A stretch of 25,906 nt of DNA from the IMG/VR virus record IMGVR_UViG_2740892258_000020. One strand, given 5' to 3'. The first letter of the stretch is position 1, and each line of letters opens with the position of its first letter. Shown piece after piece: positions 6,005 to 25,567 of this stretch. The notes below the pieces were generated by a model. It was not told the DNA's origin. It saw nothing but the letters and a program-made list of their open reading frames with translations, and searched no databases. The DNA comes from a virus (Duplodnaviria > Heunggongvirae > Uroviricota > Caudoviricetes). The translations under genes were made by a program, and so were the position numbers.

Positions 6005-6856
6005 TCACTGTGCAGTTTTCGCTGATCGATTTTCAGCTCTAAATTCAAGAACCGTTTCAATATTTCTTTCCTTCAGCATATCAATAACATTTTTATTCAT
6101 TTGACTATCACTGGTTAATAACTGGTAAACGTTGCTTCTCTCTTTATCAGAGTTTTCTTTAACAGCTGCTTTGCATGCCAAATGCTTATTGAAATTTTCT
6201 ACATCGCTAGTACAGGAATTTACGGCTGCTGATGAAATATCAGACGCTGAAGAAACACCATCATCCAAACGTTTTATAGCATTTTCTATACATGAGTTAA
6301 GGGAATAAACGACAACTGAGCGATACCCTTCAGACGCACACCATTCTAAATTTCTTGAAGGATCGAGTGGTTTTACTTCGCTGGATTGAATTAACTTGTC
6401 AAAAACTGACTTATATTCAATCTGTTTTTTATCTATAGCCCATACTTCAGTAGCTGATTTATAATTCCCCGTATGCCTATTAACATCAAATCCATGTTTT
6501 ATAAGCAAATCTGCCCATGAAAGATTTATTGATTCATTGTTATGAGGCCATTTTCCTGTCAGAACCGCCCCCATAGACCCCATATATCCGCCATATGATG
6601 GTATAGCACCATGGCTCAGTAACTTCTCAGCAACCACAGGGCAATTAATTACATAAGAGGCGTAAAGCCCATTCCATAAAGCCCCTCTATAGTAATCGCC
6701 ACGATTAGGTTCTTTTAAGTCGATAGCCTTTGATAATTGTTCACACGTTTTGCATGCATCAAAGTTATCCTTATTGCATTGCAATGAACTGGCAGCTGTA
6801 GGATTTACAGAGACTATTGAAAGCACTATGCCAAAAAACAAATTTATTTTTTTCAT
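6005..6856 (-). CDS. secreted/periplasmic cargo protein (283 aa) with N-terminal signal peptide, many Cys, and possible ankyrin-like repeat motifs
   Basis: MKKINLFFGIVLSIVSVNPTAASS signal-like N-terminus; motifs PVVAEKLLSHGAIP and ADLLIKHGFDVNRHTG resemble ankyrin repeat consensus (tentative). AT-rich; ATG 1 nt after the stop of the upstream ejection-protein gene. Confidence 0.7.
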   Translation of the reverse strand: MKKINLFFGIVLSIVSVNPTAASSLQCNKDNFDACKTCEQLSKAIDLKEPNRGDYYRGALWNGLYASYVINCPVVAEKLLSHGAIPSYGGYMGSMGAVLTGKWPHNNESINLSWADLLIKHGFDVNRHTGNYKSATEVWAIDKKQIEYKSVFDKLIQSSEVKPLDPSRNLEWCASEGYRSVVVYSLNSCIENAIKRLDDGVSSASDISSAAVNSCTSDVENFNKHLACKAAVKENSDKERSNVYQLLTSDSQMNKNVIDMLKERNIETVLEFRAENRSAKTAQ

Positions 6857-6857
6857 C

Positions 6858-9800
6858 CTATTTCATCTGCTCTTCAACTTTATTTAGTAACGGTGATATT
6901 GCCCACAGGTTCTGAAAAGGTAGCATTTTACGGACCGCGTGGGTTTGCTGGCTGTCAAATTCTCCGTTAAGTACACCATTCGCAACCGTCGCGGCATCAC
7001 CGCCAAGATCAAAGGTAGGACCAAGTAAAGCACCAATAGCATTACGACTCTGAAACCTTGATACCGGAGGCGCACCAAACATCGCGCCAAGACCAAACCT
7101 ACCGCCGCTTATGTTCTCAACGGTATTCAGCGGCTCAGAGAGCCAGCCAAGCATTCCGCCCCGGTCGATCCCCTCTTTCACAAGGTTATTCCAGCTGTAG
7201 TCAATATCGCGACCGCTTAACTTCTGTTTCATCATATAGACCATTGAGCCAAGCGCAATCGTGCCAAGCGCACCAAGATAGAATGCAGCATCGCCCTGCT
7301 GGATACCAGATACCAGCACCCTGTTATGCTGTGCGAAGATAAACGTTTTGAACTGCGTGATCATCTTCCAGCCTTCTTTACTAAAAAACAGCGGTGTATC
7401 ACCTACGCCAGGCGTTACAATCACTGAGTCTACATCTTTCAGCACTGCAGACTGGAAAATCTCTCTAGCGAAACGGTCATCCCACAGATGACTATGCCCG
7501 GTTAACAGCCCGTCCATATCCTCTCCGTGCTTCCCGAATTGCTCCCCGATTCGGCGCAGAACATCTTCATTGATGCCGACCTGTGCCATCTTCCGCATTT
7601 CACTTTTGGAGAGCGTGCCACCAGCAGAAACTTGGCGAGCCGCGTCAAGTATCCTCGACTGCACTATCATCCCGGACCATGATTTAAGTGCGCTGTTCCA
7701 CTGATTCATCAGCGTCCAGTTACCGAATTTCTGCGTCATCCAGTTCAGGCCTCGCTCAGCGGCGCTTCTCCGGCTATATGGGTCAGTAAGATCCGCTATA
7801 GCCTTTGTACGCGTAGACAGGACATAATCAAGCCCAACGGCCATTTCTCGCAAATCCCTGGTTGCAATTTTCACTGAGTCCATATTTTTAAGCATGCTTA
7901 CCATTGGTCCGAGAGATTTTCTCAGGCCATGCTGCATCATCGGTCGCATCAGATCAGTTGCAGCGGAGACAGTCATTCCACCAAGCAAACGGAGGAAGTT
8001 AATATTCCTAGCAACTCGCCCGGCACGAACAAAGAAACTGCGTGGATCTTGAGGTGCACCGTAAGTACCAAGCAGTCGATCACGCATAGCCGTAATATCC
8101 CTAATATCAGCCTCCCGTTGCTTCTCAAGAACTGCACGTCGTTTAGGCGTTTTAGCCTCTTTTATTAGCCGGGTATATTCCTCACTAACCTGACGGATTT
8201 GCTCCCCCATATCTTTACGGCCAAACTGCGCAGTCAGCTCAATTTCTGGTGCCACCTGCCGGAGATAACTTTCCATGATGTAGTTAACATCTGATTCAAG
8301 AAAATCTTCTATACGCTCATCAGGAATAAGCAGCGTTCTGCTTTTAGTGAAACCAGCCCGACCAACGAGTCTCTCTGGGATAATATCGGCTGGTACAAGC
8401 CCGGAAGGTGCACCTATTATTTTATTCACGATCTCGTCAGCAGCGTCCTCTGCTTCCTCTCGGGATAGAGGCTCCATCTGCTTCAGTGCTCGTTCGCGGC
8501 TTGCATTCAGCCTTGTGGTTGAATTTGCCCGTTTTTGCAGTCGGCGAAGCTCAGAACGATATTTCCGTGGATTATCCAGCAACTCCATATGGCGCTGATA
8601 GACAGGAAGCTCACTCTTTGCCTGCGCTATATCATCAAGGCGTGTTTTAAGGTCAGAGCTTTCTTTCATCATTCTTGCCTGAAGTTTTTCTGATGAAGTC
8701 TCGGCCAACTCTTTTTCTATTCTTGTAAGACGCGCCTGTGTGTCAGTCTCCTGAGATATAAGCTTATTTCGTTTATCCAGTTCTTCCATGAGTAGAATTT
8801 TTTTACCAGACCATTTCTCCGCTTCAGCGATTTCACTAGCGAGAGCATCAGCGCGCGGTGCCGATTCCTCTGCAGTTTTTAGCAATGAATTTATCCTTTC
8901 AATTCGCTGACCTGCCTTGTCAGCACCTTTGGCACTAATCCCTTGTATCCAGTTGGCAATTCGCCCTCTGAATTCAGTGCGGTCGGAAAGTATCTTATCG
9001 AACTTATAAATGCGGGGAAGATAACTTTTCGCCGTCACGACATCGATATCCTCAGGAAGGATCCCCAGTTCCTGCATACGGGCTTTTGTGGTCTCGAAAA
9101 TGGGGCGGATTCTGGCAGCTGCTTGTGAAACCTCAGGAATATCACTCTGATCACCACGGCGCATAGCCATGCCAACAGCTTCATTGAAATCAATAAAGTT
9201 CATCCTCTTCACGCCGCGGGCGCTAACAGATTTGCTGTACTGCTGGTAAGCATCACGAGTGGCTTCCATCTGCTTATAAAGCATGGCGTCGTATTGCTTA
9301 ATCTTAGTCTCGACTGCCGTAAACGTAGCCAACCCCTCATCATTTTTGGCGAAGAAATAGTTATTTTCGGCAAGCTGCTGGTTAATCTGACGGGAGACAA
9401 GAGATGGTGATTGCGCCAAGCGGCCAGCAGGAGTGACACTCAACGTTTTGTTAGCAAGTCCAAGTCCAGCGAGCTGTTCCTGATCGAGTGTGGTATTGAA
9501 AACCTGAGCTGCACCAATGCTTTGAGGAGAATCCATACCTCGCAAATGATTACCTACTGAGTTAACCACTGCCTCGCGCGCGCCAGGTCCAGCAAGTAGC
9601 TGTGCACCAGCACCAAGGATCCCACCAACGAGAGCATCAACAACAACGTTCGATACGCTCTCCATCGGTGAGCGAGCTTCCTGAGTGGCCTGTAATGCGG
9701 CCTCTGAAGCAACACTGCCAGCAGCATTCGCCAGGGCAAAACGCCCGGCTGTTTCTGCAATACGACCGCCACGAACGACAGCGCCGAACGGAATAAACAT

Positions 9801-10247
9801 AGAAATCGCATTGAATGGATCTGCTAATCTCATTGCTACAGAAGAGACTGTACCAGCAAATCCCAAGCCTGAATTGTATTCCATGTCAGCTCTCTGCTGA
9901 TCGATTCGATGTTTAATTGCCATTGTTTCTTCAGGCGAACCGGAGTTGATAAACGAATCTGCAAAATCTTCATAGCCTTTAATATCTGCTGCATCGTTAT
10001 CAAATGGGTTATATCCTTCAACCCTGTCAAACTGACTGAAAGGAGCACTGGCAATAAAGCTACCCAGCGTGTTATCTATACGAAATGCTGCTTGTCTAGA
10101 CCTTTGAACGCGTTGATCACTGGTAAATGGGTTCACAGCAGAAAGCAAAGAAGGTGTTTCCATATAGAAATTACTGTCATCAGGTGCTGCTATTTGCTGA
10201 ATATCCTCGCCAAGCAACTCTTTAGGATCCTGTTCATATATCGGCAT
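6858..10247 (-). CDS. large internal virion / DNA ejection protein (1129 aa), T7 gp16-position analogue
   Basis: Last and largest gene of the tube/core gene run; long coiled-coil-like central region (KTAEESAPRADALASEIAEAEK...); start overlaps the upstream gene stop. Assignment by position and size. Confidence 0.55.
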   Translation of the reverse strand: MPIYEQDPKELLGEDIQQIAAPDDSNFYMETPSLLSAVNPFTSDQRVQRSRQAAFRIDNTLGSFIASAPFSQFDRVEGYNPFDNDAADIKGYEDFADSFINSGSPEETMAIKHRIDQQRADMEYNSGLGFAGTVSSVAMRLADPFNAISMFIPFGAVVRGGRIAETAGRFALANAAGSVASEAALQATQEARSPMESVSNVVVDALVGGILGAGAQLLAGPGAREAVVNSVGNHLRGMDSPQSIGAAQVFNTTLDQEQLAGLGLANKTLSVTPAGRLAQSPSLVSRQINQQLAENNYFFAKNDEGLATFTAVETKIKQYDAMLYKQMEATRDAYQQYSKSVSARGVKRMNFIDFNEAVGMAMRRGDQSDIPEVSQAAARIRPIFETTKARMQELGILPEDIDVVTAKSYLPRIYKFDKILSDRTEFRGRIANWIQGISAKGADKAGQRIERINSLLKTAEESAPRADALASEIAEAEKWSGKKILLMEELDKRNKLISQETDTQARLTRIEKELAETSSEKLQARMMKESSDLKTRLDDIAQAKSELPVYQRHMELLDNPRKYRSELRRLQKRANSTTRLNASRERALKQMEPLSREEAEDAADEIVNKIIGAPSGLVPADIIPERLVGRAGFTKSRTLLIPDERIEDFLESDVNYIMESYLRQVAPEIELTAQFGRKDMGEQIRQVSEEYTRLIKEAKTPKRRAVLEKQREADIRDITAMRDRLLGTYGAPQDPRSFFVRAGRVARNINFLRLLGGMTVSAATDLMRPMMQHGLRKSLGPMVSMLKNMDSVKIATRDLREMAVGLDYVLSTRTKAIADLTDPYSRRSAAERGLNWMTQKFGNWTLMNQWNSALKSWSGMIVQSRILDAARQVSAGGTLSKSEMRKMAQVGINEDVLRRIGEQFGKHGEDMDGLLTGHSHLWDDRFAREIFQSAVLKDVDSVIVTPGVGDTPLFFSKEGWKMITQFKTFIFAQHNRVLVSGIQQGDAAFYLGALGTIALGSMVYMMKQKLSGRDIDYSWNNLVKEGIDRGGMLGWLSEPLNTVENISGGRFGLGAMFGAPPVSRFQSRNAIGALLGPTFDLGGDAATVANGVLNGEFDSQQTHAVRKMLPFQNLWAISPLLNKVEEQMK

Positions 10248-12994
10248 TATTTGCCCCCTGCGTATATATTGCTCGGAAGGTAATTGGCTGAACCATAACC
10301 GAATGGTTTGGTCAGATCTGGAGGAGTATATCCATCTTTATTGCTGAACTGCGGCAGCGGATTGCCTTCTCTCCGCACTCTAGCCTCATCAACACGCTGT
10401 TGCTGGAACTGAATGGTTTGCCTGTACATTGGAGATGTCAGCTGATCCGGCTTGAAACGAACAGGGAGACCATTTTCTCCAATATAATTTCTCGGTTCTA
10501 TCGCTCCGTTTGCGTCAGGCTGTAAAACCATAACAGCATAACTCCTATCCCTTGCCGTAAGGCCATCAGAAACAAGTATTAAGTCCGTATCACTGCGAGG
10601 ACCGCCAAAGGATTTTGATTTAAGCTCGCGTTTTTCCTGCTCCCACTGCCCCTGTATCCAGTTACCAGCACCATTATTTACTCCGTACAATGCCTCAGGT
10701 GCATACTTCATAACCTCTGCTTTGCCATTAACTGTAGAAACTCCCCAGGTGGTTCTGATCATGGCATTGGTCATTTTCTCAGCCTGTTCTGCATCGCCAC
10801 CTGTCTGTACAAAGTTAGCATCGTAAATTGTCTGGTAATCTCGCTGATAGGCCGCATTTGATTTTCCTGGATCGGTAATATCCGGAGACCACGAACCAAA
10901 GGAAGTCAGACTGCTGGCGTTATTTTGTGCAGCAGTTGCCCTCGCCGCGACATATTTTTTGTCTCGCATGGCAGTGGAAAGCATCTGTTTCATTCGGTCA
11001 TCCTGTTGGAACACCTGGCTGTAAGCCATATCAACAGCCTTATCCTCCGGCACGCCAGCGCGGGAATAATCGTAAACCTTGCCGTAAAATGCCATCGTAC
11101 TTTTATCAAGTGTTGCCGCTGCCGCCGGATTATTATCAAATAACTGACCGTAGAATTTTGCCATCGGGACAACCAGCGCAGGATCTCTTGATGTTGCTCC
11201 ACTGTTAAGCATTGTTTTAACCTGAGTTGGTATCATGCCGCTTTTAGTTGTGACGGTGACCAGTGTATTGATGCTCTGCGGATCAGATATGGAAAACGAA
11301 GGCGCGATATCCTGCGCGAAATAACGGTCTACCGCTGCCTGATTGTTTTTGTCGTTCGGGTCCAGCGGGAAGTTATTTTGCATTGAAGACACGAACCTGT
11401 TTCTTCCCTGCTGAATCTCCCACTCCCTATCCATCTCTTTAAATTTGGCCTGCATTTTCTCCCAGCGTTGCTGGTTAGCTGCAAATCCAGGAGCGTTTGG
11501 ATCCTGTGGACGTAAACGTTCAAGAATGTCTTGTCGTCCTTCTGGAGTGAGGTCTTTAGCGGCACCAATGACACCTCCATATTGTATCTGCGCCTGCATA
11601 TCCTTCCACTTCATAGCGCCAATGCGCGGACCATTGGCCCGGATAAAATCGTCCTCAGAAGGTAACTTCTCAGGTTTCAATCCTTCATCAAGGGCTGAAT
11701 ATGCATCTTTAACTACGGTGCTAAGCTGGTCCGCATACTGCTGGCGGTACTGATTTCTCAGCTCATTAGCCTGCCTCAATGCCTGTATTTGCATTTGAGG
11801 GCTCATAGCGTCAAATGCCGCATTGCCCGTATAACGCTTAGGTGAATCAAGGTTAGTTAGACCAAGGGATGCCGAGATACCAGTTTCAAGCTGTTCGGTG
11901 CTATAAGGCATACTGCCATTTTCGTGTTTAATAATCCCAGCACATAAAGCAGCTAGTGTCTTTGGGTTAGAGATATCAAGCTGATCATTCTCCCCAACAC
12001 CAAGCTCACTACACAATGCCCTAATATAAGCATCAGTATTATTACCATCACTAGCCGGAGCATAGCGATTAACAATCTCGCTAACGGTGTCATAGCCTTG
12101 ACGCTGGTAAGACAACATATTTTTACCCAACGCGCGGATTCCATGCTCAGGGGTAGCAAACGTTGCAAAACGTCCATCGCTACCGATCTGACCTTCCCAC
12201 GGGTTAGATTTGCTCGCTTCAATATTACCAGGGTTATTATTACGTAAACCACGAGCATCCAATGAATTACCATGTGATATTGCACGACTCACACCATCAA
12301 GATCCCCTGGCTCTCCATTAACCTGAAGAAACTCGTTGTATTTTTGAGCGATATTTCCTATCCATGCTTGCTGCCCCATTTGTTCCTTGAGCTGAGTTTT
12401 CTGCTGAACACGCCACCCATCAGGAAGCCCATGTGCATCAGCGTATTGATCAATAGATTCAAATCGCTGCTTGGCTAAATCGACAAATGCTTGGTTATCG
12501 CTATATAGCCCCGCAGACTGAGTGACAGCCAATGCATTTCCTGACAAATACGTTTGATCTTGGAATTGCTGAAACTGCCCAACTTCATATCGACGTGCCT
12601 GATTGTAATAAGACTGCATAGACTGCTGGAGTTGAAAGGATAATTTATTCCTTTCCTCACTTTCAGGAATTGAGCCTAATAATGCCTGAGCCCTTTCCTG
12701 CATATTTTTCATAACAGCGTCACTCTGACCAAGAGCGTTTTTACCCTGTTTAGAAATCAGCCCATTTTCAGGGTTGTTAATCTGGTCATCTGCAAATTGG
12801 TTAAATTGCAGTAACGCCTCCTGAGCCATAGCAACATTCGCTTTCTGCCTGGCTTCACCATATGCCACCGCATACTGATCTGCGACATTCGCCAGCACCT
12901 GACCTGCTTGAGGAACATCGAAGGTCTGAAAACCACCGGTTTGCACACCACGACTTTGCACCTGGCGTCCGGATGTAGTAGGAACAACTGGCAT
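10247..12994 (-). CDS. internal virion protein (915 aa), T7 gp15-position analogue; contains a conserved-looking block (LRNNNPGNIEASKSNPWEGQ...FATFATPEHGIRALGKN) that may be a cell-wall-interacting domain
   Basis: Position and size in the ejection-protein run; Gln/Asn-rich. Domain call is tentative recollection only. Confidence 0.5.
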   Translation of the reverse strand: MPVVPTTSGRQVQSRGVQTGGFQTFDVPQAGQVLANVADQYAVAYGEARQKANVAMAQEALLQFNQFADDQINNPENGLISKQGKNALGQSDAVMKNMQERAQALLGSIPESEERNKLSFQLQQSMQSYYNQARRYEVGQFQQFQDQTYLSGNALAVTQSAGLYSDNQAFVDLAKQRFESIDQYADAHGLPDGWRVQQKTQLKEQMGQQAWIGNIAQKYNEFLQVNGEPGDLDGVSRAISHGNSLDARGLRNNNPGNIEASKSNPWEGQIGSDGRFATFATPEHGIRALGKNMLSYQRQGYDTVSEIVNRYAPASDGNNTDAYIRALCSELGVGENDQLDISNPKTLAALCAGIIKHENGSMPYSTEQLETGISASLGLTNLDSPKRYTGNAAFDAMSPQMQIQALRQANELRNQYRQQYADQLSTVVKDAYSALDEGLKPEKLPSEDDFIRANGPRIGAMKWKDMQAQIQYGGVIGAAKDLTPEGRQDILERLRPQDPNAPGFAANQQRWEKMQAKFKEMDREWEIQQGRNRFVSSMQNNFPLDPNDKNNQAAVDRYFAQDIAPSFSISDPQSINTLVTVTTKSGMIPTQVKTMLNSGATSRDPALVVPMAKFYGQLFDNNPAAAATLDKSTMAFYGKVYDYSRAGVPEDKAVDMAYSQVFQQDDRMKQMLSTAMRDKKYVAARATAAQNNASSLTSFGSWSPDITDPGKSNAAYQRDYQTIYDANFVQTGGDAEQAEKMTNAMIRTTWGVSTVNGKAEVMKYAPEALYGVNNGAGNWIQGQWEQEKRELKSKSFGGPRSDTDLILVSDGLTARDRSYAVMVLQPDANGAIEPRNYIGENGLPVRFKPDQLTSPMYRQTIQFQQQRVDEARVRREGNPLPQFSNKDGYTPPDLTKPFGYGSANYLPSNIYAGGK

Positions 12995-13572
12995 CAGTAA
13001 CCTCCTATTTTGAATCGGGAGTCAGAATTCATAAAACCTGAGTTAGATAACATTGGCGTCCCACCACTAGATGTACTTCCTTTAGAGAACGGACTCCACG
13101 TTCCGCCGCCCAACTTATATGCACCGTATGCTTTTAGTGGTGCTGTTAACAAAGTGCTGGTCATCGATGATTTAGCAGCCGACTGAGCAGCAGCCCCCTG
13201 TGCCTGAGCATTCATTCCCTGAACCTGATACCCATATGCCTCACGCTGAGCATTATTCACTGTCGTTAACGCATCAAGAGTGCCGAACTGAGCATTATCC
13301 GCAAAAACGTCAAGAGCTGTTCCGCTACTTAATTCCGCACCGGTAGCCCCCATAGTGGCCGCCGCAGTGCCTGAGCGTTGACGCATTTCACGACGACGCT
13401 GATCTGCTTCAATATTCCCACGATTGATTGAATCCTGTGCCTGAGCTTCAGCAATTTCAGCATTCCGATCAGCTATGGCTGACTGGTATTTTGCCTGCTT
13501 GCTCTGGCTGTACATTGACGCGGCTGTGGATGCCACTGTGACGGCAACCAAAGCGATGGCTGGGTTACACAT
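12994..13572 (-). CDS. internal virion protein (192 aa) with hydrophobic N-terminal segment, T7 gp14-position analogue
   Basis: MCNPAIALVAVTVASTAASMY hydrophobic N-terminus, Ala/Gln/Gly-rich body, size close to T7 gp14 (196 aa), correct position. Confidence 0.45.
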   Translation of the reverse strand: MCNPAIALVAVTVASTAASMYSQSKQAKYQSAIADRNAEIAEAQAQDSINRGNIEADQRRREMRQRSGTAAATMGATGAELSSGTALDVFADNAQFGTLDALTTVNNAQREAYGYQVQGMNAQAQGAAAQSAAKSSMTSTLLTAPLKAYGAYKLGGGTWSPFSKGSTSSGGTPMLSNSGFMNSDSRFKIGGY

Positions 13573-14036
13573 TATTTTCTCTCCATGTGAAATCTGTGGA
13601 AATTAAGACCAATAGCACCATAAGGCGCGGCTTCTTCAAGCCTGAATCCAAGCCAGTGCAGCCATGCTTTGGCAACATGGTTTCGCTCGTCGACGTAGTT
13701 TTCCAGGCGCGGATAAACTGCCAGCATCTGCTGCAATACAGGGCGGCAGTGGCGCAGAAATGTCTTCTGATATTTTTCAATACGGCTGGTCCCGACCAGC
13801 CAGGGCGTACCATTGCCACCGATCATTGACGCCGGAGATACGCCAAACATGGTTACCAGTTCTCCGTTCGCGAACCCTGACCAGGCCATAGTCGCAGTAC
13901 GCAGACCAACACGCAGCGCATCTTCGGTAGTCATCAGTGATACCGCATACAGTTCGTCAATATCAGCCTGACGAACATCCGGCAAAATCATCTGAAGATG
14001 CTCTTCGGTTGCGGGAATAATTTGAACATCGATCAT
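13572..14036 (-). CDS. small virion-associated protein (154 aa), T7 gp13-position analogue
   Basis: Position between the tail-tubular-B-like and gp14-like genes with 1-nt overlaps on both sides; no motif confidently recognised. Confidence 0.35.
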   Translation of the reverse strand: MIDVQIIPATEEHLQMILPDVRQADIDELYAVSLMTTEDALRVGLRTATMAWSGFANGELVTMFGVSPASMIGGNGTPWLVGTSRIEKYQKTFLRHCRPVLQQMLAVYPRLENYVDERNHVAKAWLHWLGFRLEEAAPYGAIGLNFHRFHMERK

Positions 14037-16507
14037 CAGAATCCCCCAACAGTAAGGCGAGGAATAACGGCAAGAACAGACAGCGGCAACGGATCAAGCT
14101 GACGGATTTTTACACGTCCGTTTTTGCCCCAGTTACTGTCCAGTTTCACTTCTACTTTTCCGGTAGCATCATCAACAGGATCATCGTAGAACTCGAATTC
14201 ACGCTGTGGATATTCGTACCATTTACCGCCGGGCGTAGTCGCCCAGATGCCGCGACTGGCATTCACAACCAGAGTAACGGAGGGGATCACCTGTTTTTTG
14301 TCCAGCAGCGTTTCCTGTCCGTTAATGTTGATATCCAGTGTTTCGAATTCAGCAGTTATTGGCAGGCCGATGTGCACTACAGCCCCCGGAGATTCCAGCG
14401 TGACGGCACCTCCGGAAACCACTTTCTGTGGTTCCACGTTCGCATCAGAGAGAATGTTTACGGTCTGGCCTTCAAGATGAGACAGGCCTCCAAATGTCCG
14501 GCGCGCCATCTGCCAGTTCGTGGTGGCCACATTCCTGAGGGATGGCGGGACGTTCCTGTTAGCACGAACCACTACAGCGGTATTGCTGGTTACAGAAATA
14601 ATGTCGCAACGTAATTCTTTTGACACTTCATCGCCAGTATCAGGATCAGTTCCGGTATAAGGGAACTGTAGTTGCGCGCCGACATCACTACTGGTGAAGT
14701 ACGCACCACCAGAAACACTGATTGTATATTCCGCACGGTAATCCCATTCACCAGAACCACCAGTGATGGTCATCGTTCTGTCAGACGTATTTCTTCCATC
14801 ATAGCTAAGGCCAGAATCAACAAAGAAAGCATCTTCATCGCTGGTAAATAAACGGCTGGACAGTCGCTCGATGTATCTCACTGTTTGCCCGTTAACGGTT
14901 CGGTTAATGACGAAATACACCGCATCTTCATTGCCTTCGCTGATACTGCATGTGCTTTCATATTTTCCGGTACTGGACTGTGGTGCCCATGCAAAAACCT
15001 GTTGATCACGCAAATAGGTCATCACCAGTAATTTACCGTCATCACGAATGCAGAAGGCGCTGGAGTAAGGGACAATAGAGAAGCACCAGTCAACAATGCT
15101 GTGCTTCTGAAAAAGATGATTGGCAAGGATAGTAAGGTCGTTCCCCTGATAGCCGTCAACATCGAATGAGTAGGCCAGATCACGGACAACACTGCCTTTC
15201 TCCTGGACGAACAGAGCAATATTCGCCACGGCAATTGGTGGGACATTGCTCGAACCATTTGATCCCTGAGAGCTGAATGCAAATGATGATGGAGTTAATA
15301 CTTTGTTCTGGTCGCCGGTGATGACGTACTCACCTCCGGAAGTCAGTGCCACCAGCGAACCGACATCAATCAGGTGGCGGATCTCATTAACCTGACGCCC
15401 GGCATAGGTGTAGATAATTCTGTCGTCATCCTGCGTAGGATTGCTTTTGCCAAAATCCTTATAATCCCCAGTACGGCTGGCCCAGATAGTCTGAGGGAAC
15501 GCTGTCGATGCGGCGAAGTAAAGACGTTGTTGATAATAAACAACCGTGCCAGGATAACCGTTAACACTGTTCCAGGCATATTTAGCCCATTTATAGCTGG
15601 CATTATCCTCGCCAACGACCTGCGAAGGGATATAGGAAATCACCTCAGCAGTTGCAGTAGTGCCATTTACAGCAGTTATACGGGCAATGCCAAAACCACT
15701 GTGCAGATACTCCCACTCAATGCCAGTATCATCATCACCGGATCCGCCCCAGCCATCCCATGATGTGCCTTCTGTATGCGAAGGGCGCAAAGTGCCTGTT
15801 TTGCCTGCTGTAACGGCGCGATAGTAGTTACTGTCTGCACGGCGAATATCGCCAATCGACGTACTCTTACTGGTTTCCCATACCGGCACAGAATCCACTG
15901 CAGGCTGTTCCAGATAGAACAATTTGCCTACCTGCTCCGCGCCAAAAATAGAGGCGCTTGCCGTTAACGTAATTGTCCCGGTGCTGGCGCTGGCATAAAC
16001 CGTCACTGACTCATCAATATTGATATCTTCAAATGGCCCGTTCTTCGTTACCACATCAACCAGTTGCCAGTTGTCATGCGCATAGCGGCGCAGCTCTTTC
16101 GGCGGGTATGCCGGGTGAACCAGCGTAAGCACGTCGGCGCTTTGCGTGAATTTAATTCGGAACAGATCGGCTTCAGTATATGGCGTGGCAATTTCATAAA
16201 TAACATTGCTGCTGTTCAGCACCAACGCACCATCTTTGATAACGCGCATGTACTGGTGTCCGAACTCCAGAGCATAAGTCTGAACCGTCGAGAATTGGAA
16301 CGGGATCAGGCGGCATTTCCGATTTGGGTATTTGGCGGCACCGACAAAACGCGTACCAGGTCGATTCTCAACGCCGCCATACTGCCGCACGATAAAGTTA
16401 TCGCACTTGCGCAATGCTACCTGGTACTTCGCCATGTCAATACGCCCGTACAACGACGGTCCAATCTCACCACCGGCAAAGCTGGGCTGGATCCAACTGA
16501 TAGCCAT
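14036..16507 (-). CDS. tail tubular protein B-like (nozzle) protein (823 aa)
   Basis: Size and position match T7 gp12; N-terminus (PSFAGGEIGPSLYGRIDMAKY...GGVENRPGTRF) loosely resembles the gp12 N-terminus as I recall it. Confidence 0.5.
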   Translation of the reverse strand: MAISWIQPSFAGGEIGPSLYGRIDMAKYQVALRKCDNFIVRQYGGVENRPGTRFVGAAKYPNRKCRLIPFQFSTVQTYALEFGHQYMRVIKDGALVLNSSNVIYEIATPYTEADLFRIKFTQSADVLTLVHPAYPPKELRRYAHDNWQLVDVVTKNGPFEDINIDESVTVYASASTGTITLTASASIFGAEQVGKLFYLEQPAVDSVPVWETSKSTSIGDIRRADSNYYRAVTAGKTGTLRPSHTEGTSWDGWGGSGDDDTGIEWEYLHSGFGIARITAVNGTTATAEVISYIPSQVVGEDNASYKWAKYAWNSVNGYPGTVVYYQQRLYFAASTAFPQTIWASRTGDYKDFGKSNPTQDDDRIIYTYAGRQVNEIRHLIDVGSLVALTSGGEYVITGDQNKVLTPSSFAFSSQGSNGSSNVPPIAVANIALFVQEKGSVVRDLAYSFDVDGYQGNDLTILANHLFQKHSIVDWCFSIVPYSSAFCIRDDGKLLVMTYLRDQQVFAWAPQSSTGKYESTCSISEGNEDAVYFVINRTVNGQTVRYIERLSSRLFTSDEDAFFVDSGLSYDGRNTSDRTMTITGGSGEWDYRAEYTISVSGGAYFTSSDVGAQLQFPYTGTDPDTGDEVSKELRCDIISVTSNTAVVVRANRNVPPSLRNVATTNWQMARRTFGGLSHLEGQTVNILSDANVEPQKVVSGGAVTLESPGAVVHIGLPITAEFETLDININGQETLLDKKQVIPSVTLVVNASRGIWATTPGGKWYEYPQREFEFYDDPVDDATGKVEVKLDSNWGKNGRVKIRQLDPLPLSVLAVIPRLTVGGF

Positions 16508-17115
16508 CAGGACAACCTCGCAATGGTAAACTCATCAACCGGTGGCTGTGGTTCCTGTGATTCATTCTGGCTATGCGAGCCAGCACTAAGAATCACGCGA
16601 TTGTACATATTGAGGGCAAACGTACCGAGGTCTGCATTCCCAGTCAGCGCCATGTTAATAGCTGCCGCAAGACGCCAGGCCAACGCCTCCATAAAAATGG
16701 CATCAAACATGTTCACATCTGTAACGCGAGAGACATACTTGAGCCATGCCTGAGGCTGGTCTGTGTAGATCAACTTTCCTGTTCCGTTGGTGTCTGCACC
16801 AACTTCGTACTGAACGCGCATTGCTGCTGTTGGATTGCGTACACCAGGAAGCATAATTTCAGTAATGCGCAGACAATCTGACGGGTACTGGTACGCATAT
16901 TCCCAGTCAGGCGGTGGATTGCTCGTATCTGCAAGCGCCACGCGTTTGGTAGCAAAGTTCCAGTCAAAATCAGAAAGCACAGCATCACGACAGGCCTCAA
17001 AGTGCAGCGAACATTCCCCCGCTTCCTTGCTGGCTTCCGTCAGGCTGTTAATGCTGCGGCTGTTGCCAATATTGGACAGCGCACGATTACAGATCTCTAC
17101 TACAGAGGCCATCAC
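16507..17115 (-). CDS. tail tubular protein A-like (adaptor) protein (202 aa)
   Basis: Size and position match T7 gp11 (196 aa), immediately upstream of the gp12-like gene with overlapping stop/start. Confidence 0.45.
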   Translation of the reverse strand: MMASVVEICNRALSNIGNSRSINSLTEASKEAGECSLHFEACRDAVLSDFDWNFATKRVALADTSNPPPDWEYAYQYPSDCLRITEIMLPGVRNPTAAMRVQYEVGADTNGTGKLIYTDQPQAWLKYVSRVTDVNMFDAIFMEALAWRLAAAINMALTGNADLGTFALNMYNRVILSAGSHSQNESQEPQPPVDEFTIARLS

Positions 17116-17441
17116 TCACCTCCGTTACCGTACAGAGTTTCAGCCGCTGATTTTTCTACATCCCCGGAAACAGGAGCGATCGCCATATCAGTGATCTGCA
17201 GATCGGCGCTGCGATTAACGCCATCGTTAGTTTCTCTGGCAGACAGGCCTCGAATAACAGCCTTTGCAGTTATCATCACTTCCGTTCCGACGCCCTTAGG
17301 TTGCGCCTTCAGCTTATTCAATGTGTCGTTATTAAGAGTGATGCACAGCCCCCACGGGTATTCATCGCGAGTTCTGGTTTCTCCGCTCTCATCCTGGTAG
17401 CTGTCAGTGCCGGTTTTGAGGTTTACGAGTTCCATATACAC
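17112..17441 (-). CDS. hypothetical virion-module protein (109 aa)
   Basis: Compact ORF in the late operon; 4-nt overlap with the downstream gene. Confidence 0.5.
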   Translation of the reverse strand: MYMELVNLKTGTDSYQDESGETRTRDEYPWGLCITLNNDTLNKLKAQPKGVGTEVMITAKAVIRGLSARETNDGVNRSADLQITDMAIAPVSGDVEKSAAETLYGNGGE

Positions 17442-17485
17442 TCCTGCAATAAAGGGGCCGAAGCCCCTTGTCTGATCCGCGAGGC

Positions 17486-17830
17486 TTACACGCCCAGTTC
17501 TTTACGCTTATCTGCGATCTTCTCGCGGAGCGTTTCGGCTTTGGCGTTATGGTGTGGCTTCTCGTTAAAGAGCAATTCGTACTCTTCACGGAGCTTATCC
17601 AGTTCACCATCATCTGACACATCGTTGATGATTTTGGTGCTGGTTGCTGCCATAGACACCTTTCCTGCTACCTTTGCTTTTGCCTGTCTGGCTGCATCGT
17701 TAACAGGTTCCAGTGCGCTACCAGGCTCACCTTCGTATTCGATTTCTGCCCCCTCCGGCCACAGAGTGTTATGGATATGAGAGAGGCGCAGAACGCGGTA
17801 TCTTGGTTTCTCACCTGACATCGATATCAC
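17486..17830 (-). CDS. hypothetical virion-module protein (114 aa)
   Basis: ORF in the late operon between capsid-associated and tail genes; followed by a UUCG-loop hairpin (17452..17467). Confidence 0.5.
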   Translation of the reverse strand: MISMSGEKPRYRVLRLSHIHNTLWPEGAEIEYEGEPGSALEPVNDAARQAKAKVAGKVSMAATSTKIINDVSDDGELDKLREEYELLFNEKPHHNAKAETLREKIADKRKELGV

Positions 17831-17831
17831 C

Positions 17832-18269
17832 TTAACCAGTTACTTTTGAGAGGATCGGATACGGCGTATTGGCATCAACATCAAGACTGATACCAGCAGT
17901 GAATTCGCCAGCCGTTAGTGGGCCAGTTGCGACGGAGTAGTTAACACGCAGATATCGCTGAACACCGGCAGGCACCTTTGCAGAAACAACTCGTTTACCT
18001 GCTGTCAGGGCGGTCTTTGCCAGTGCGCCACTATCATAAATAGTGGTCCATGAGCTGTTATTCTCACTCGTCTGCAACTGGATGTTTACAGTTGCATCAC
18101 CGCTTGCCGCGGCGGCTGTGTTAACCAGCGCCCAAAACTCAAGCGGGTAACCCACGCCGATATCACGACGTTTTCCGTCAATTGGACCGAGATCGATTAC
18201 GTCAGTAGAAGCCGCGGTATTCGTAACCGCCTGAGCTTCGGAGAACATCAACAGTTTGTCGGTGATCAT
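17832..18269 (-). CDS. capsid-associated protein (145 aa), possibly decoration or head-completion
   Basis: Directly follows the major capsid gene; Thr/Ala/Gly-rich, beta-rich composition. Function by position only. Confidence 0.45.
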   Translation of the reverse strand: MITDKLLMFSEAQAVTNTAASTDVIDLGPIDGKRRDIGVGYPLEFWALVNTAAAASGDATVNIQLQTSENNSSWTTIYDSGALAKTALTAGKRVVSAKVPAGVQRYLRVNYSVATGPLTAGEFTAGISLDVDANTPYPILSKVTG

Positions 18270-18320
18270 CTTCTTTCTCCATTAGTGGGTCTGTTACGAC
18301 CCACAGGTTAATAACAGGCG

Positions 18321-19313
18321 TTACACCACGCGGGCTTCTGTTTCCAGAAGCGCATCAGTTTCACGGATTGGTACACCACGGAATGAAGTCCACCACTCGC
18401 CTTCTGTCTCTTTTACGCTGATCGCCAGAGATGTTTTCTCCAGAGATTGCAGATCAAGAGCCTGGCCTACAGTGCGGTTCATGTAGAACACCGGGCGACC
18501 CATGCCACGATTTGGAATGCGATGCAGTGCTTTAACCATCAACTTCGCAATATTTGCGGCAGAGGAAGGTTCTGAAAGATTGCTGACATCGATGTTTGCA
18601 ATGCGAACAACATAACGCCAGTCACGCAGAGCAAGTCCGTTGTCCCATTTGTAATGGGTACGGTAGCCTTCGTACTTGCCGCCATTAGCATCTTCCAGTG
18701 TCACCTGGCCTTTATCTTCCATCTGAATGCCAGCCTTCTGCCCTTTCGGGAAGATGCCATGCACTGTGTTTTCGCCCCACACCACTAACCAGATTGAGGT
18801 GTTATCTGTACCCGTGCCACCAGCATCAATGATGTTCTGAGCATTACCTGCAGACAGGCTGGAATAGCGGGAGGACAGTCCCATAAACTGCTGAGGGTTA
18901 ACGCTGGAATCACCATAAAACAGCGTCTGCGCCATCTGCTGATTCATCGCTTCAATAAATGCGCGGTCTTCAGACAGGCGGAATTCGGCGGTATTACCGT
19001 TCAGATCAGCCAGTGACTTATCGACTTCAGCATAGGTTTCCAGCATTCCAACGGAATCGGTGACCTGCACTGTGGTTGATTTGCTTGGCTGTACGCCATA
19101 GTTCAGCAAACGCCAGGTGGCTGAAGGTAAACCAGAACGAATGGTGGTTCGGTGTCCGGTAGGAAGGTTCCCTTCGACAAAAGGCATATCCTGAAGGATC
19201 GGGTTAGTTTGACCGAGAAGCTCGATAATCTTATCGACTTTCCCGTTTTTATCGACGCGCTTACCCCAGTCAGCCAGCGTTAGCGCAGTTAAGCCTTTAA
19301 CAGCCATTGTCAT
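18321..19313 (-). CDS. major capsid protein (330 aa)
   Basis: Position immediately after the scaffold-like gene and size typical of HK97-fold capsid proteins; GC and codon usage match the structural operon. Confidence 0.6.
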   Translation of the reverse strand: MTMAVKGLTALTLADWGKRVDKNGKVDKIIELLGQTNPILQDMPFVEGNLPTGHRTTIRSGLPSATWRLLNYGVQPSKSTTVQVTDSVGMLETYAEVDKSLADLNGNTAEFRLSEDRAFIEAMNQQMAQTLFYGDSSVNPQQFMGLSSRYSSLSAGNAQNIIDAGGTGTDNTSIWLVVWGENTVHGIFPKGQKAGIQMEDKGQVTLEDANGGKYEGYRTHYKWDNGLALRDWRYVVRIANIDVSNLSEPSSAANIAKLMVKALHRIPNRGMGRPVFYMNRTVGQALDLQSLEKTSLAISVKETEGEWWTSFRGVPIRETDALLETEARVV

Positions 19314-19321
19314 TTCCTCTC

Positions 19322-20023
19322 TTATTTGCCATAGAGCACTTCGGCCGCACTACGCTGGCCTTCATTACCACCGGTGACCATGCCATCTTCAGACATCGCC
19401 TTTCCGATTTTCACGAACGTTTTGACCAGATCAGGGTGATTACCCAGCCCGGTGGTGTTCAGATATTCTTTGAGTTCAGGTGTCCCGAACTGGTCAAGCG
19501 CACGCTGTGCGGCGCTAAGGTTAGAAATCAACTTGTCGCCACCGATTTCTTTGTCAGCTTTTACATCCGCAGCCCACTGCTCGGTTGTTTTCTGCCAGGC
19601 TTCTGCCTGGCGCTGCTGAACACCTGCCAGAATCTTCGGATAAGCATCAACCAGCTTTTGCGCTTGCTCGTTGGTCAGGTTAAGTTCTCGCGCCACCGGC
19701 TCGAATTCCTTCAACGCTTCTGTATCCAGCTCTACGCCTTCGGCAGCCTGAAACTCGTACTTCTCAGGCGCACCCTCTGGTTTATCGCCGTCCTTTTTTT
19801 CATCCTGCTTATCGTTTTCAGGCTTTTTGTCATCAGCAGGTTTATCGCCATCAGCAACAGGTTGTGGCTTATCACCTTCCTGTTGTGATGGATCACCAAC
19901 TGGAGCAGGGTTATCACCTGCAGGCGCTGACGGTTCTGACGCAGCCGGAGCTGCTCCACCATCGACTGGTTGCTCATTGCAAAGACGGCTATACAGCAAA
20001 CGCTCAAATAAATTCATGATCAC
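19322..20023 (-). CDS. scaffolding protein (233 aa)
   Basis: Highly acidic, Pro/Asp/Lys-rich N-terminal half and predicted-helical C-terminal half; lies between portal and capsid genes; 4-nt overlap with the upstream gene. Confidence 0.6.
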   Translation of the reverse strand: MIMNLFERLLYSRLCNEQPVDGGAAPAASEPSAPAGDNPAPVGDPSQQEGDKPQPVADGDKPADDKKPENDKQDEKKDGDKPEGAPEKYEFQAAEGVELDTEALKEFEPVARELNLTNEQAQKLVDAYPKILAGVQQRQAEAWQKTTEQWAADVKADKEIGGDKLISNLSAAQRALDQFGTPELKEYLNTTGLGNHPDLVKTFVKIGKAMSEDGMVTGGNEGQRSAAEVLYGK

Positions 20024-20316
20024 TCCTGTTCACTGGCCTCTTTGGCCATCTTCAAATACTGTTCAGGACAATGCGCCATAACGCGCTGAAACAGTTCCAG
20101 CGCCAGATTGCGTTGCCCCTCATTAAATGCCATTGCCATAGCGTCCATCGGTGAGATAGCGGAAAACACACGGCCTTTCTCCAGCACCGACCAGACAACG
20201 CGACGCCCCTGTTCACTGCTCATGACAAAGCGAATGTCATCAATTTCACGCTGTGCCATGTCACGTTGCTTACGGGCGTTTTCTTCTTTCAGTTGATCGT
20301 CTTCGTAATCTGTCAT
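20020..20316 (-). CDS. small acidic protein (98 aa) between portal and scaffold
   Basis: ORF with ATGA-type overlaps to the portal stop and the scaffold start; function unknown. Confidence 0.5.
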   Translation of the reverse strand: MTDYEDDQLKEENARKQRDMAQREIDDIRFVMSSEQGRRVVWSVLEKGRVFSAISPMDAMAMAFNEGQRNLALELFQRVMAHCPEQYLKMAKEASEQE

Positions 20317-21992
20317 TGTGATTGCCCACCCTGACCACTAACTGCATTCGCCATAGCTGACAAAACACTCGGATCCGAAGTTTTAGCTTCGCTTAGCGTC
20401 TTGGCACCCTGTGCCGCCGCCATCCCCATCGCCATCATTTGTTGCTGCTGTTGCTGCTGTGCCCGTTGCTGGCGAGCCTGCTCAACCTGTTCCTGCGGAA
20501 CAATGACGGTTGGAGACACTCCGGACATATCAGCGAATGCATCGATCGCCTGATCAACGTTGAGTTTGTCGAGAGCTTCTGGTTTCGCTTGCGCAAGTTG
20601 ACCAATGAAGTTAACCGTGGACGCCAGACTGGACAGGCCGATAGACTTCTGCGCCTGAGCCATGACGGAAATGTATTCGACCTTCAGGGGCATACCTTCC
20701 ATCACGTCTGGCGGTGGCGGCAGCATGTTTTTACGCACCATCATCGAGAAAGAGCGGTCAATGAGAGGATTAAGACATTCGTCGTTCAGACGCTCCAGAA
20801 CCGGCCCCAACATCAGAAGTTTTTCTTCTTTCATTTCGATCACCGCTTCAACAGGCATCGAGCGGGTATTGATGTTCTGCAACATCATGAACAGATCGAC
20901 AAAGTAGGCGCTGTTAATGATTTGACGAGTGTCCTGAATGTCTGCCACCAAATCTGCTGTACTGGGGTTAACCAGATAAGCAGGCCTGAAACCATCCTGA
21001 CCAGTAATCTGATCGATATACGTGATGTCGCCAGGAAGAAGGGAGGCACGCTGATTCTTGAGGGAAGTCGGAGCAACCATCGGCGGATTGGTGGCTTTAT
21101 CAATCAACTGCGACTTGCGCTTCTGGAGAAGCTGCAATGCCTTAACAGGTCCAAGCGCCAGCATACCCGGGCATGATGATCCATAAACATCTTCGCCGTT
21201 AACTTCCCAGCGCGGAGCCATAATTGGAAACTCATCGAATCCGGACTCACGCAACAACTTGTCGTTATCGCCACCAACCTCGTAATAAACCGATTTGAAT
21301 GGCTTGTTCTTGCTATCCAGCTTCGATGTATCGCGGTCAATGTTCGGGTAAACCGAATGCATCACTTCAATCCACTTCTCGTAGGTGCCGCTTTCCCACA
21401 TGCTTTTTACGGATTCGCTGACGTTATTTAGCCCGAACTCCTGAACAAGCTGACGAACAGTCATAGAGAACTTGCGAAAACAGGTGTCCACACTGCCACG
21501 AGGTGAGTTAGCCAGGTAGTAACTGCCTATCGGGAATGGCATTGTGCGAATGATGTCCTCGTCATCCTCCAGCACCGCCATTGCACCAGTGCTGTATGTG
21601 CCGAGGCTTCCGTATAACTGCGGAAGAGACTGGTAGAGATTCGACTTATTGAACATATCGTTCATGCGGTTCTGCACCGCCTCGAGCCACAACTTAACAG
21701 GACCATAATCCATCATTTCAGGATCTGGCGTAGCCAGGCGAAACCACGGACGCGCAGGGCTTGTGATGCCTGACATCATGCCGCTGGCGAGAGTGCGCGC
21801 CGCCATAGTCCCGGTCGAATCAATAATGCGTGTATTGCGTCGATCGTTACGGTTGACTTCAGAAGTCAGAAAGCGGGAACCACGCGGGTTGATGTAATCA
21901 CTCAACTCGCGCCAGTGCGGCTCGAACGACTGACGCTCGCTTTCAAGTTGTGCGAACTGTTTGTTCAATCGCTCTTTAGTTGTTTCCGCCAT
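20313..21992 (-). CDS. portal (head-to-tail connector) protein, T7 gp8-like (559 aa)
   Basis: Size close to T7 gp8; C-terminal region (EQARQQRAQQQQQQQMMAMGMAAAQGA) strongly resembles the T7 gp8 C-terminus (EEQKQQKMAQQSMQMGMDNGAAALAQGMAAQA) as I recall it. GGAG RBS. Confidence 0.8.
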   Translation of the reverse strand: MAETTKERLNKQFAQLESERQSFEPHWRELSDYINPRGSRFLTSEVNRNDRRNTRIIDSTGTMAARTLASGMMSGITSPARPWFRLATPDPEMMDYGPVKLWLEAVQNRMNDMFNKSNLYQSLPQLYGSLGTYSTGAMAVLEDDEDIIRTMPFPIGSYYLANSPRGSVDTCFRKFSMTVRQLVQEFGLNNVSESVKSMWESGTYEKWIEVMHSVYPNIDRDTSKLDSKNKPFKSVYYEVGGDNDKLLRESGFDEFPIMAPRWEVNGEDVYGSSCPGMLALGPVKALQLLQKRKSQLIDKATNPPMVAPTSLKNQRASLLPGDITYIDQITGQDGFRPAYLVNPSTADLVADIQDTRQIINSAYFVDLFMMLQNINTRSMPVEAVIEMKEEKLLMLGPVLERLNDECLNPLIDRSFSMMVRKNMLPPPPDVMEGMPLKVEYISVMAQAQKSIGLSSLASTVNFIGQLAQAKPEALDKLNVDQAIDAFADMSGVSPTVIVPQEQVEQARQQRAQQQQQQQMMAMGMAAAQGAKTLSEAKTSDPSVLSAMANAVSGQGGQSQ

Positions 21993-22006
21993 TTCAATGA
22001 CTCCGG

Positions 22007-22318: not shown

Positions 22319-22650
22319 CCAAAGGGCTCATTCTGGTTACTAACCTGACTGGCTTGTCGTTAAATTAAACAGGTGGAGTGAGCTTTTATTTTGAGCAGTA
22401 CGGCGTATGGCACATGCGCCGATAGCGGTCTGGATACGTTTAAGGGGCACCCTCCCTTGCTCGGGCAAACGAACCAGGTAGCCGGAATGTGCAAGTCGAG
22501 CGGTTTTATTCCGCGCACGGGGATTCACCATCCCGGCGATTCGGTGTGACGCCTCGGAAGAGACGAGGGTACAACGATGAGAGCATTTATGGAGCCGCGA
22601 CAAAGTGTGGCGCCTTAACAGGCTAAGTGCTCTCAGCGTTGTGGCATTAG

Positions 22651-22727
22651 CTCAGTTGGACAGAGCAACCGCCTTCTAAGCGGTTGGTCGCAGGTTCGAA
22701 TCCTGCATGCCACGCCAGAATCACGCC
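22651..22727 (+). tRNA. tRNA-Arg, anticodon UCU (reads AGA), phage-encoded
   Basis: Full cloverleaf: acceptor GTGGCAT/ATGCCAC, D-arm GCTC-AGTTGGACA-GAGC, anticodon stem ACCGC/GCGGT with loop CTTCTAA, T-arm GCAGG-TTCGAAT-CCTGC, discriminator G and encoded CCA. Similar to but distinct from host argU as I recall it. Confidence 0.9.
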
Positions 22728-25450: not shown

Positions 25451-25466
25451 AACCACCGTGGTAATA

Positions 25467-25483
25467 GTTACCGTTGTGGTAAT
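25467..25483. promoter_or_regulatory. operator palindrome site 5 (GTTACC-GTTGT-GGTAAT) within a tandem array of GGTAAT/TTACC half-sites upstream of the small-terminase gene
   Basis: GTGGTAATAGTTACCGTTGTGGTAATAGTACC (25458..25489) contains TTACC-N5-GGTAA flanked by further GGTAAT and TACC half-sites. Confidence 0.45.
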
Positions 25484-25567
25484 AGTACCATGCAAAATAA
25501 AGCCGCCATAGTTGGCGGCAGTATTCAAAACCATCAAATTCATCATGCATAACCCACTCGTGACATG

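Follow-up and report, generated by a model that had tools for sequence, protein, structure and literature searches.

The DNA stretch analysed here (the window; 25,906 nucleotides, IMG/VR record IMGVR_UViG_2740892258_000020) carries the virion genes of a short-tailed phage on its minus strand (Table 1). Between positions 6858 and 21992 the open reading frames (ORFs) are packed tightly, with the sizes reported in a first-pass annotation of the same DNA, and adjoining virion genes either overlap by 1-4 nt or lie a few bases apart. Every ORF has a strong PHROG match (E-values of 1e-47 to 0). Because of these matches, and because the DNA is 100% identical to that of annotated prophages, we consider the ORFs of this operon to be real genes rather than chance reading frames.

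Table 1. Positions of the packaging, head, tail and ejection features in the window, in the order of transcription of the virion operon (aa, amino acids)
Feature	Position	Strand	Evidence
TerS, small terminase subunit, 230-aa ORF (224 aa from RefSeq start)	24854..25546	-	Pfam Terminase_2, E 1.2e-29; phrog_51; 98.7% identical to phiV10 TerS
TerL, large terminase subunit, 491 aa	23382..24857	-	phrog_2, E 1.1e-52; 99.6% identical to phiV10, 94% to epsilon15 gp2
tRNA-Arg (anticodon TCT)	22641..22717	+	ARAGORN; tRNA-Arg also in IHE3034 annotation
Portal, T7 gp8 family, 559 aa	20313..21992	-	Pfam Head-tail_con PF12236, E 2.7e-187; Carin-1 portal PDB 8ck0, E 1.5e-178
Bbp19-like small head-module protein, 98 aa	20020..20316	-	Pfam Phage_Bbp19, E 2.8e-17; 66% identical to epsilon15 gp5
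Scaffold/protease-like head assembly protein, 233 aa	19322..20023	-	phrog_458 'protease', E 1.1e-110; 75% identical to epsilon15 gp6
Major capsid protein, BPP-1/epsilon15 type, 330 aa	18321..19313	-	Pfam GP7 PF20911, E 4e-149
Bbp16-family capsid cement homologue, 145 aa	17832..18269	-	Pfam Bbp16, E 4.7e-47; RefSeq 'Bbp16 family capsid cement protein'
Small conserved protein, epsilon15 gp9 homologue, 114 aa	17486..17830	-	phrog_590, E 3.9e-61; 40% identical to epsilon15 gp9; no Pfam match
Epsilon15 gp10 capsid staple homologue, 109 aa	17112..17441	-	Pfam Gp10-like PF21628, E 8e-52; RefSeq 'capsid staple protein'
Tail adaptor, T7 gp11 fold, 202 aa (201 aa from RefSeq ATG at 17112)	16507..17115	-	Carin-1 connector 8ck1_E, 3.9e-26; LME-1 orf17
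Tail nozzle, T7 gp12 fold, 823 aa	14036..16507	-	Carin-1 'Tail Nozzle' 8ck1_A, 9.8e-218, full length; LME-1 orf18, 7e-16
T7 gp13-like internal/assembly protein, 154 aa	13572..14036	-	phrog_308: 2.6e-62 here, 1.1e-42 for T7 gp13
T7 gp14-like ejection protein, 192 aa; predicted outer-membrane pore component	12994..13572	-	Pfam T7_gp14 PF24072, E 6.5e-9; phrog_418 internal virion protein
Ejection protein in gp15 position, 915 aa; predicted periplasmic tunnel protein with muralytic domain	10247..12994	-	phrog_1044/992
Enc34 ORF39-type (PHA02564) lysozyme-like glycosidase domain, residues 247-399 of the 915-aa protein	11798..12256	-	PDB E1004 Gp29 9vvp_L, 9.7e-35; Enc34 endolysin 7q47, 2.8e-15
T7 gp16-family ejection protein without N-terminal SLT, 1129 aa; predicted inner-membrane component	6858..10247	-	phrog_342, E 2.2e-233
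Secreted 283-aa protein, last operon gene	6005..6856	-	phrog_6118 (unknown function); N-terminal signal-peptide-like segment

Positions 1552-25000 of the window share 100% DNA identity with a prophage in E. coli IHE3034, APEC O18 and other strains. In IHE3034 and APEC O18 this prophage lies between yfgI and guaA with an integrase present, and at least 80% of the query is found in 98 of 5,426 complete E. coli genomes. With a 19.9-kb query (6005-25906), phage EC.W1-9 shows 97.5% DNA identity over 93% of the length, ejection cassette included, and phiV10, TL-2011b and O157 typing phages show 98% identity over 58-60%. The products encoded from TerS through the 154-aa protein share 97-100% identity with those of phiV10 (Uetakevirus), in the same gene order; BLASTP gives a one-to-one, collinear correspondence with epsilon15 gp1-gp15 and phiV10 p01-p18. 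Together, the prophage identity, the protein identity to phiV10 and the collinearity with epsilon15 lead us, with high confidence, to regard the region as the virion (late) operon of an E. coli prophage, namely a temperate, short-tailed phage from the phiV10/epsilon15 (Uetakevirus-type) lineage; the operon carries what homology indicates is a T7-type tail and ejection set. The phage group and its features have already been sequenced and largely described, and identical prophages are in RefSeq.

The genes for a temperate lifestyle lie outside the window and were read from the annotation of the identical IHE3034 prophage, which lists a tyrosine integrase beside guaA, repressor-type helix-turn-helix regulators, and replication protein P among lambdoid replication genes. 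This bears out the suggestion of the first-pass annotation that the DNA comes from a temperate relative with T7-type tail and ejection machinery. No phage RNA polymerase is annotated in that prophage. By its annotation, therefore, the phage falls outside the Autographiviridae in the strict sense, which are defined by a single-subunit RNA polymerase and an obligately lytic plan. The K1 prophage CUS-3 is P22-like. We rejected an identity with CUS-3, as its ejection proteins, listed in a review as 230, 449 and 719 aa (PMC8954989), do not fit.

Profiles and structures tie the portal, adaptor and nozzle to T7. The portal and T7 gp8 match each other's PHROG (phrog_332/449), with T7 gp8 reaching phrog_332 at 1.5e-31. 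The AlphaFold2 model of the adaptor (predicted local distance difference test score, pLDDT, of 86) retrieves Carin-1 in Foldseek at 5.9e-16 and T7 gp11 in entries 7box, 7ey7 and 6r21 (E-values of 1e-5 to 1e-4, probability 1.0, template modelling (TM) scores of 0.52-0.63), with 7box_N aligned over the full length at 1.1e-5 and TM 0.61/0.63. It also retrieves LME-1, the cyanophages A4 and P-SCSP1u, PhiM1 and KP32 tail tubular protein A. The nozzle model (pLDDT 89) superposes on Carin-1 with a TM score of 0.93 and finds T7 gp12 in five independent T7 entries (7ey9, 6r21, 9jyz and 7boy among them) with E-values of 4e-24 to 2e-21 and TM scores of 0.52-0.56; further matches are the nozzles of E1004, Kp7, Kp9, HRP29, PhiM1 and P-SCSP1u. 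Carin-1 was named as the source of the matched structures from the Foldseek descriptions and the LME-1 paper.

A sequence profile of the nozzle points in the same direction. The nozzle family comprises 18,301 representatives at 50% clustering. A listing of homologues gave relatives with at least 82% identity, which was too shallow, and diverse representatives of the 50% clusters were aligned instead. The resulting profile of 129 diverse relatives singles out T7 gp12 among 12 T7 structural proteins, both in hmmsearch (1.8e-6, versus at least 0.17 for the others) and in hhalign (probability 54% and E 1.3e-4, versus at most 1% for the others), and the aligned segments follow the same order in both proteins. 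No Pfam model recognises the adaptor, the nozzle or the 915-aa protein. In the solved homologues Carin-1 (8ck1) and LME-1 (9efk), portal, adaptor and nozzle occur in a 12:12:6 stoichiometry (PMC12407071). The RefSeq record of epsilon15 carries HHpred notes that liken its gp11 to T7 tail tubular protein A and its gp15 to SLT/lytic transglycosylase. The earlier description of a T7-type portal followed by an adaptor-like 202-aa and a nozzle-like 823-aa protein thus stands, and the profile and fold searches placed neither of the latter two in a non-T7 tail family.

The proteins encoded after the nozzle had been likened to T7 gp13 to gp16 by order and size. The parallel holds for gp13, gp14 and gp16, and is looser for gp15. 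For the 154-aa protein the shared PHROG carries the assignment, the Pfam model Phage_T7_Gp13 staying below threshold (E 0.087). The 192-aa protein matches the Pfam T7_gp14 model over its full length at 36.4 bits (cutoff 27), as does, above the cutoff, epsilon15 gp14 (180 aa). The 1129-aa protein aligns with positions 192-1227 of phrog_342, whereas T7 gp16 (E-value 0) starts at position 4 and carries a Pfam SLT domain at residues 15-127; no SLT or other muralytic Pfam match was found in the 1129-aa protein. The 915-aa protein and T7 gp15 (phrog 1339) fall in different PHROGs, and BLASTP finds a weak similarity (E 0.002) in which residues 714-783 align collinearly with 570-639. Position, size, this similarity and the muralytic domain discussed below make it a putative gp15 counterpart. 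The three ejection proteins add up to 2236 aa (192 + 915 + 1129), inside the range of 2378 ± 162 aa given for the three ejection proteins of Autographivirales (bioRxiv 10.64898/2026.05.18.726046). Searches of PDB sequences with the 154-, 192-, 1129- and 283-aa proteins returned no matches, nor did NCBIfam for the ten proteins searched.

In RefSeq the 1129-aa protein goes by the name 'DUF919 family protein', although it is a T7 gp16-family internal virion protein; the name stems from a 23-bit Pfam match to a baculovirus family at residues 530-575. The 283-aa gene that ends the operon has a G+C content (GC) of 0.367, against about 0.50 in its neighbours, and is followed by a terminator-like hairpin at 5998-5981. 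Its product has no match in PDB, Pfam, NCBIfam or PADLOC, and is probably a secreted accessory protein (a moron) co-transcribed with the ejection genes rather than a part of the T7-like set.

The head genes belong elsewhere. Among PDB sequences the capsid protein matches BPP-1 best (3j4u, 1.3e-127), followed by Carin-1 (8cjz, 1.2e-87) and epsilon15 gp7 (3j40, 3.1e-86). The first-pass annotation had judged that the capsid protein did not look T7-like and that head and packaging came from a different lineage, and both points are borne out by the Pfam GP7 family of the capsid and by terminase families other than those of T7. It had also remarked on terminase genes ahead of the portal and on three extra small genes after the capsid gene; the latter are the homologues of the Bbp16 cement, gp9 and the gp10 staple. 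The head module thereby encodes homologues of both experimentally defined decoration proteins of the lineage, the BPP-1 cement Bbp16 and the epsilon15 staple gp10, with the 114-aa gene between them.

TerS and TerL are encoded upstream of the portal, and this terminase-first arrangement is the normal order in the phiV10/epsilon15 lineage. The main PHROG of T7 gp19 is phrog_38, different from those of TerL in the window. The island between TerL and the portal is 1.4 kb long and holds a 140-aa ORF on the plus strand and a tRNA-Arg(TCT), after which a terminator-like hairpin occurs at 22761-22796. The tRNA overlaps, in antisense, an 83-aa ORF (22647-22898) that matches phrog_4647 and phiV10p04; RefSeq annotates only the tRNA at this place in IHE3034. 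The phrog_4647/phiV10p04 'protein family' is probably an artefact of ORF calling opposite the tRNA gene.

Several points weigh against reading the region as a working late operon with a T7-type tail and ejection set. The prophage is known here from its sequence and from predicted structures. Pairwise BLASTP and phmmer comparisons with T7 gp11, gp12, gp15 and gp16 gave nothing significant, so that the links to T7 depend on profiles and folds; across T7 gp8-gp19 such comparisons yielded a weak gp15 match and weak hints for the portal and gp13, and are uninformative at such distance. The resemblance of the 915-aa protein to T7 gp15 is weak (E 0.002, one pairwise comparison). The 'protease' label of the 233-aa head protein is without a significant Pfam match, and its function is an annotation-level one. 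Finally, the tailspike gene is truncated at about position 1552, and this copy of the prophage may therefore not make infectious particles.

The truncation lies at the left end of the window. A tailspike gene of the K1-type endosialidase kind (minus-strand ORF 1509-2408) begins with 166 aa corresponding to the particle-binding domain of phiV10/epsilon15, followed by Pfam End_N_terminal, and is cut after about 285 residues at a junction at about 1552-1556. There it is joined to genes of plasmid leading-region type, namely an LPD29 ORF (1-813) and a 3'-truncated DUF1380 ORF (952-1617). The junction is absent from all 5,426 complete E. coli genomes and from the plasmid records of PLSDB. Either the strain has undergone a rearrangement of its own that inactivates the phage, or the junction is an assembly chimera. 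An insertion sequence (IS) element at the junction was rejected, as the genome-wide matches come from the plasmid-type LPD29 and DUF1380 genes and not from a transposase.

Is the module then part of a decaying prophage that no longer yields infectious virions in its source genome? The cut spike, its fusion to plasmid genes and the rarity of the junction (0 of 5,426 genomes and no plasmid record) make this a serious possibility, albeit one we do not favour. None of the 17 virion ORFs in the run that starts with TerS and ends with the 283-aa gene is broken, each has an identical copy in the IHE3034 and APEC O18 prophages, the near-identical free phage EC.W1-9 has been isolated, and an assembly chimera would explain the junction equally well. 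Moreover, decay would bear on the viability of one copy and not on the identity of the module.

Between the virion operon and the tailspike, positions 2481-5975 form an accessory island in which several ORFs have a GC of 0.41-0.42. For this island, the annotation of the identical IHE3034 prophage lists a YafO-family toxin, a BRO-N protein and a number of hypothetical proteins, and none of its ORFs in the window matches a PADLOC defence model.

So, is the virion module a mosaic? The functional reading offered by the first-pass annotation was largely right, but its framing of the module as a notable mosaic does not hold. Had a head and packaging module recently acquired, by recombination, an unrelated T7-type block of portal, tail and ejection genes, the result would be an unusual hybrid, and the capsid, decoration and terminase proteins do belong to sequence families other than T7 gp10, gp18 and gp19. 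Modules also exchange within the group, as identity to epsilon15 is 35-43% for the head-shell genes but 81-88% for the portal, adaptor and nozzle on either side. However, portal, capsid, adaptor and nozzle all match one distant phage, Carin-1, at the sequence level, and the layout is common to epsilon15 and phiV10, which have the same gene order. In LME-1, portal, decorated capsid, adaptor and nozzle stand in consecutive accession order together with a T7-like tail, and the thousands of nozzle representatives noted above speak for a widespread family. A recent hybrid origin is thus very unlikely. Given the Carin-1 matches and this common layout, the pairing of a head of the BPP-1/epsilon15 type with a T7-type tail is an old, stable and lineage-wide architecture that has already been described. 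Comparison of gene order with T7 and with temperate podoviruses gives a parallel order for T7 and collinearity for epsilon15 and phiV10.

The real mosaicism is a swap within the group, in which the cassette of 192-, 915-, 1129- and 283-aa genes differs from its counterparts in phiV10 and epsilon15. DNA similarity to phiV10 ends at the gp13/gp14 boundary, at about position 13568. Identity to the phiV10 counterpart is 62% for the gp14-like protein. The 915-aa protein shares 44% identity with phiV10 p18 and epsilon15 gp15 over its N-terminal 496-516 aa, and its C-terminal half is unrelated to them. Beyond this, BLASTP found no counterpart in the window of epsilon15 gp16/gp17 or phiV10 p19/p20 (phrog_1145/684), and these are replaced by the 1129-aa gp16-family protein and the 283-aa secreted protein (phrog_342/16310 and phrog_6118). 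EC.W1-9 has the same cassette variant, and Klebsiella prophages carry it at about 81% identity. The capsid and decoration genes, in turn, have their low identity to epsilon15 inside a backbone that is 75-94% identical, with the capsid closer to BPP-1, which argues that the head-shell block too behaves as an exchangeable unit in the group.

The 915-aa protein contains a conserved block that had been proposed as a possible virion-borne, cell-wall-acting domain. LRNNNPGNIE (residues 250-259) and FATFATPEHGIRALGKN (residues 276-292) both fall inside the Enc34-type domain, and the alignment with 7q47 spans residues 247-362. The catalytic residues of Enc34, Glu131, Tyr95 and Trp79, have E358, Y323 and Y311 as their aligned counterparts, with Tyr in place of Trp79. 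The Enc34 domain (PHA02564) is experimentally active, all-helical and lysozyme-like, and is related to GH73/GH23; its Glu131 acts with Tyr95 and Trp79 (PMC8943055). The protein also matches PHROGs 873 and 7182, annotated as endolysin and tail injection transglycosylase. These results support the proposal that the block is a lysozyme-like domain that would act on the cell wall; its enzyme activity and the bond it would cleave are predicted from the Enc34 relatives, with the Glu/Tyr/aromatic signature retained. A non-enzymatic structural element of the internal core would fit a block that lies mid-way in a large structural protein and is recognised by no Pfam or NCBIfam model, but given the significant matches to the active, crystallised Enc34 endolysin domain and to E1004 Gp29, the conserved Glu with two aromatic residues and the two PHROG annotations, this is less probable still than a recent hybrid; no match to a non-enzymatic structural repeat was found.

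The position of the peptidoglycan hydrolase varies in podophage ejectosomes: it sits N-terminally in the gp16-like protein or else in the gp15-like protein, there either C-terminally or centrally near residue 300 (phage Ar-KM preprint, bioRxiv 10.64898/2026.05.18.726046). The locus shows the central gp15-like arrangement in a temperate phage that does not belong to Autographivirales, and its enzyme is of the Enc34 type, which is a small extension of the described pattern.

Epsilon15 ejects internal proteins and has a T7-like core stack (PMC8954989). In Table 1 of the same 2022 review, its gp14-, gp15- and gp16-like proteins are given as gp11 of 229 aa, gp12 of 499 aa and gp13 of 708 aa. These sizes and assignments do not fit the RefSeq genome of epsilon15 (NC_004775, 8040-19329), in which gp11 is the 201-aa adaptor, gp12 the 825-aa nozzle and gp13 a protein of 154 aa. 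The misfit may explain the review's puzzle of 'small' ejection proteins alongside a T7-like core stack. On balance we lean towards the view that the epsilon15-type ejection machinery is not the small P22-like set of the review but a full-size T7-type set, in which a gp14-like protein is accompanied by a tunnel protein of some 900 aa, with an Enc34-type glycosidase at its centre, and by a large distal component. The distal part would be swapped as a cassette; the breakpoint would fall within the muralytic half of the gp15-like gene or immediately behind it, and the T7 gp16-family protein and the epsilon15 gp16 + gp17 pair would be the alternatives.

By homology to T7, epsilon15, BPP-1, Carin-1 and LME-1, we infer how the encoded particle may work. 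TerS and TerL would pack DNA through a dodecameric gp8-family portal into a BPP-1/epsilon15-type capsid, and the genes for the Bbp16 cement and gp10 staple homologues lie directly downstream of the capsid gene. A gp11-type adaptor ring and a gp12-type hexameric nozzle would close the portal and bear the tailspikes. The 192-, 915- and 1129-aa proteins would be packaged in the head, expelled at infection and jointly form a channel across the cell envelope. For peptidoglycan cutting, the role of the SLT domain in T7 gp16 may be taken by the Enc34-type glycosidase near residue 300 of the 915-aa protein, the gp16-family protein itself being without SLT. Identities, families, folds and conserved catalytic residues are established by the comparisons above; how many copies of each protein assemble, in what order proteins are ejected, whether the enzyme is active and which bond it would cut are expectations drawn from the homologues.

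The main value of these findings is correct annotation, as many of the genes are labelled 'hypothetical' or are mislabelled. Names can now be assigned to the adaptor, the nozzle, the gp13-, gp14- and gp16-like ejection proteins and the tunnel protein with its Enc34-type muralytic domain. The locus also provides a temperate example, outside Autographivirales, of the rule that the peptidoglycan hydrolase can occupy different ejection proteins, and it shows that phages of the phiV10/epsilon15 group can exchange their ejection cassette.

The closest known relatives are phiV10, EC.W1-9 and TL-2011b, although the tailspike encoded in the window is an endosialidase of the K1-specific type, whereas that of phiV10 is specific for O157. 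Epsilon15 is collinear over gp1-gp15, with identities of 94% for TerL, 81% for the portal, 85% for the adaptor and 88% for the nozzle, and its virion, with an internal core and ejected proteins, has been studied by cryo-EM (PMC8954989). At a greater distance, the Cobetia marina phage Carin-1 (8cjz, 8ck0, 8ck1) has homologues of the portal, capsid, adaptor and nozzle at 32-50% identity, with the E-values given above and in Table 1, and the Legionella phage LME-1 (9efk) has identities below 20%. The LME-1 tail closely resembles that of T7 according to its authors (PMC12407071). Both phages have other hosts and carry fibres, unlike the window phage with its endosialidase tailspike. The muralytic domain also has relatives in other settings: ORF39 of Hafnia phage Enc34 is a 26-kDa endolysin of the lysis cassette with a C-terminal membrane anchor, and Gp29 of E. 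coli phage E1004 carries the Enc34-type domain at the N-terminus of a 1295-aa protein, whereas the domain here is internal to a 915-aa virion protein.

Likeness to T7 itself extends over gene order and protein sizes (here/T7: 559/536, 202/196, 823/794, 154/138, 192/196, 915/747 and 1129/1318 aa), and the two phages have in common the portal Pfam family, the adaptor and nozzle folds, the gp13 and gp16 PHROGs and the gp14 Pfam family. Unlike T7, however, the window phage is temperate, encodes its terminases upstream of the portal and has a head of a different family with cement and staple genes. It bears tailspikes where T7 has gp17 fibres, and its muralytic domain is of the Enc34 type in the gp15-position protein, whereas that of T7 is an SLT domain at the N-terminus of gp16.

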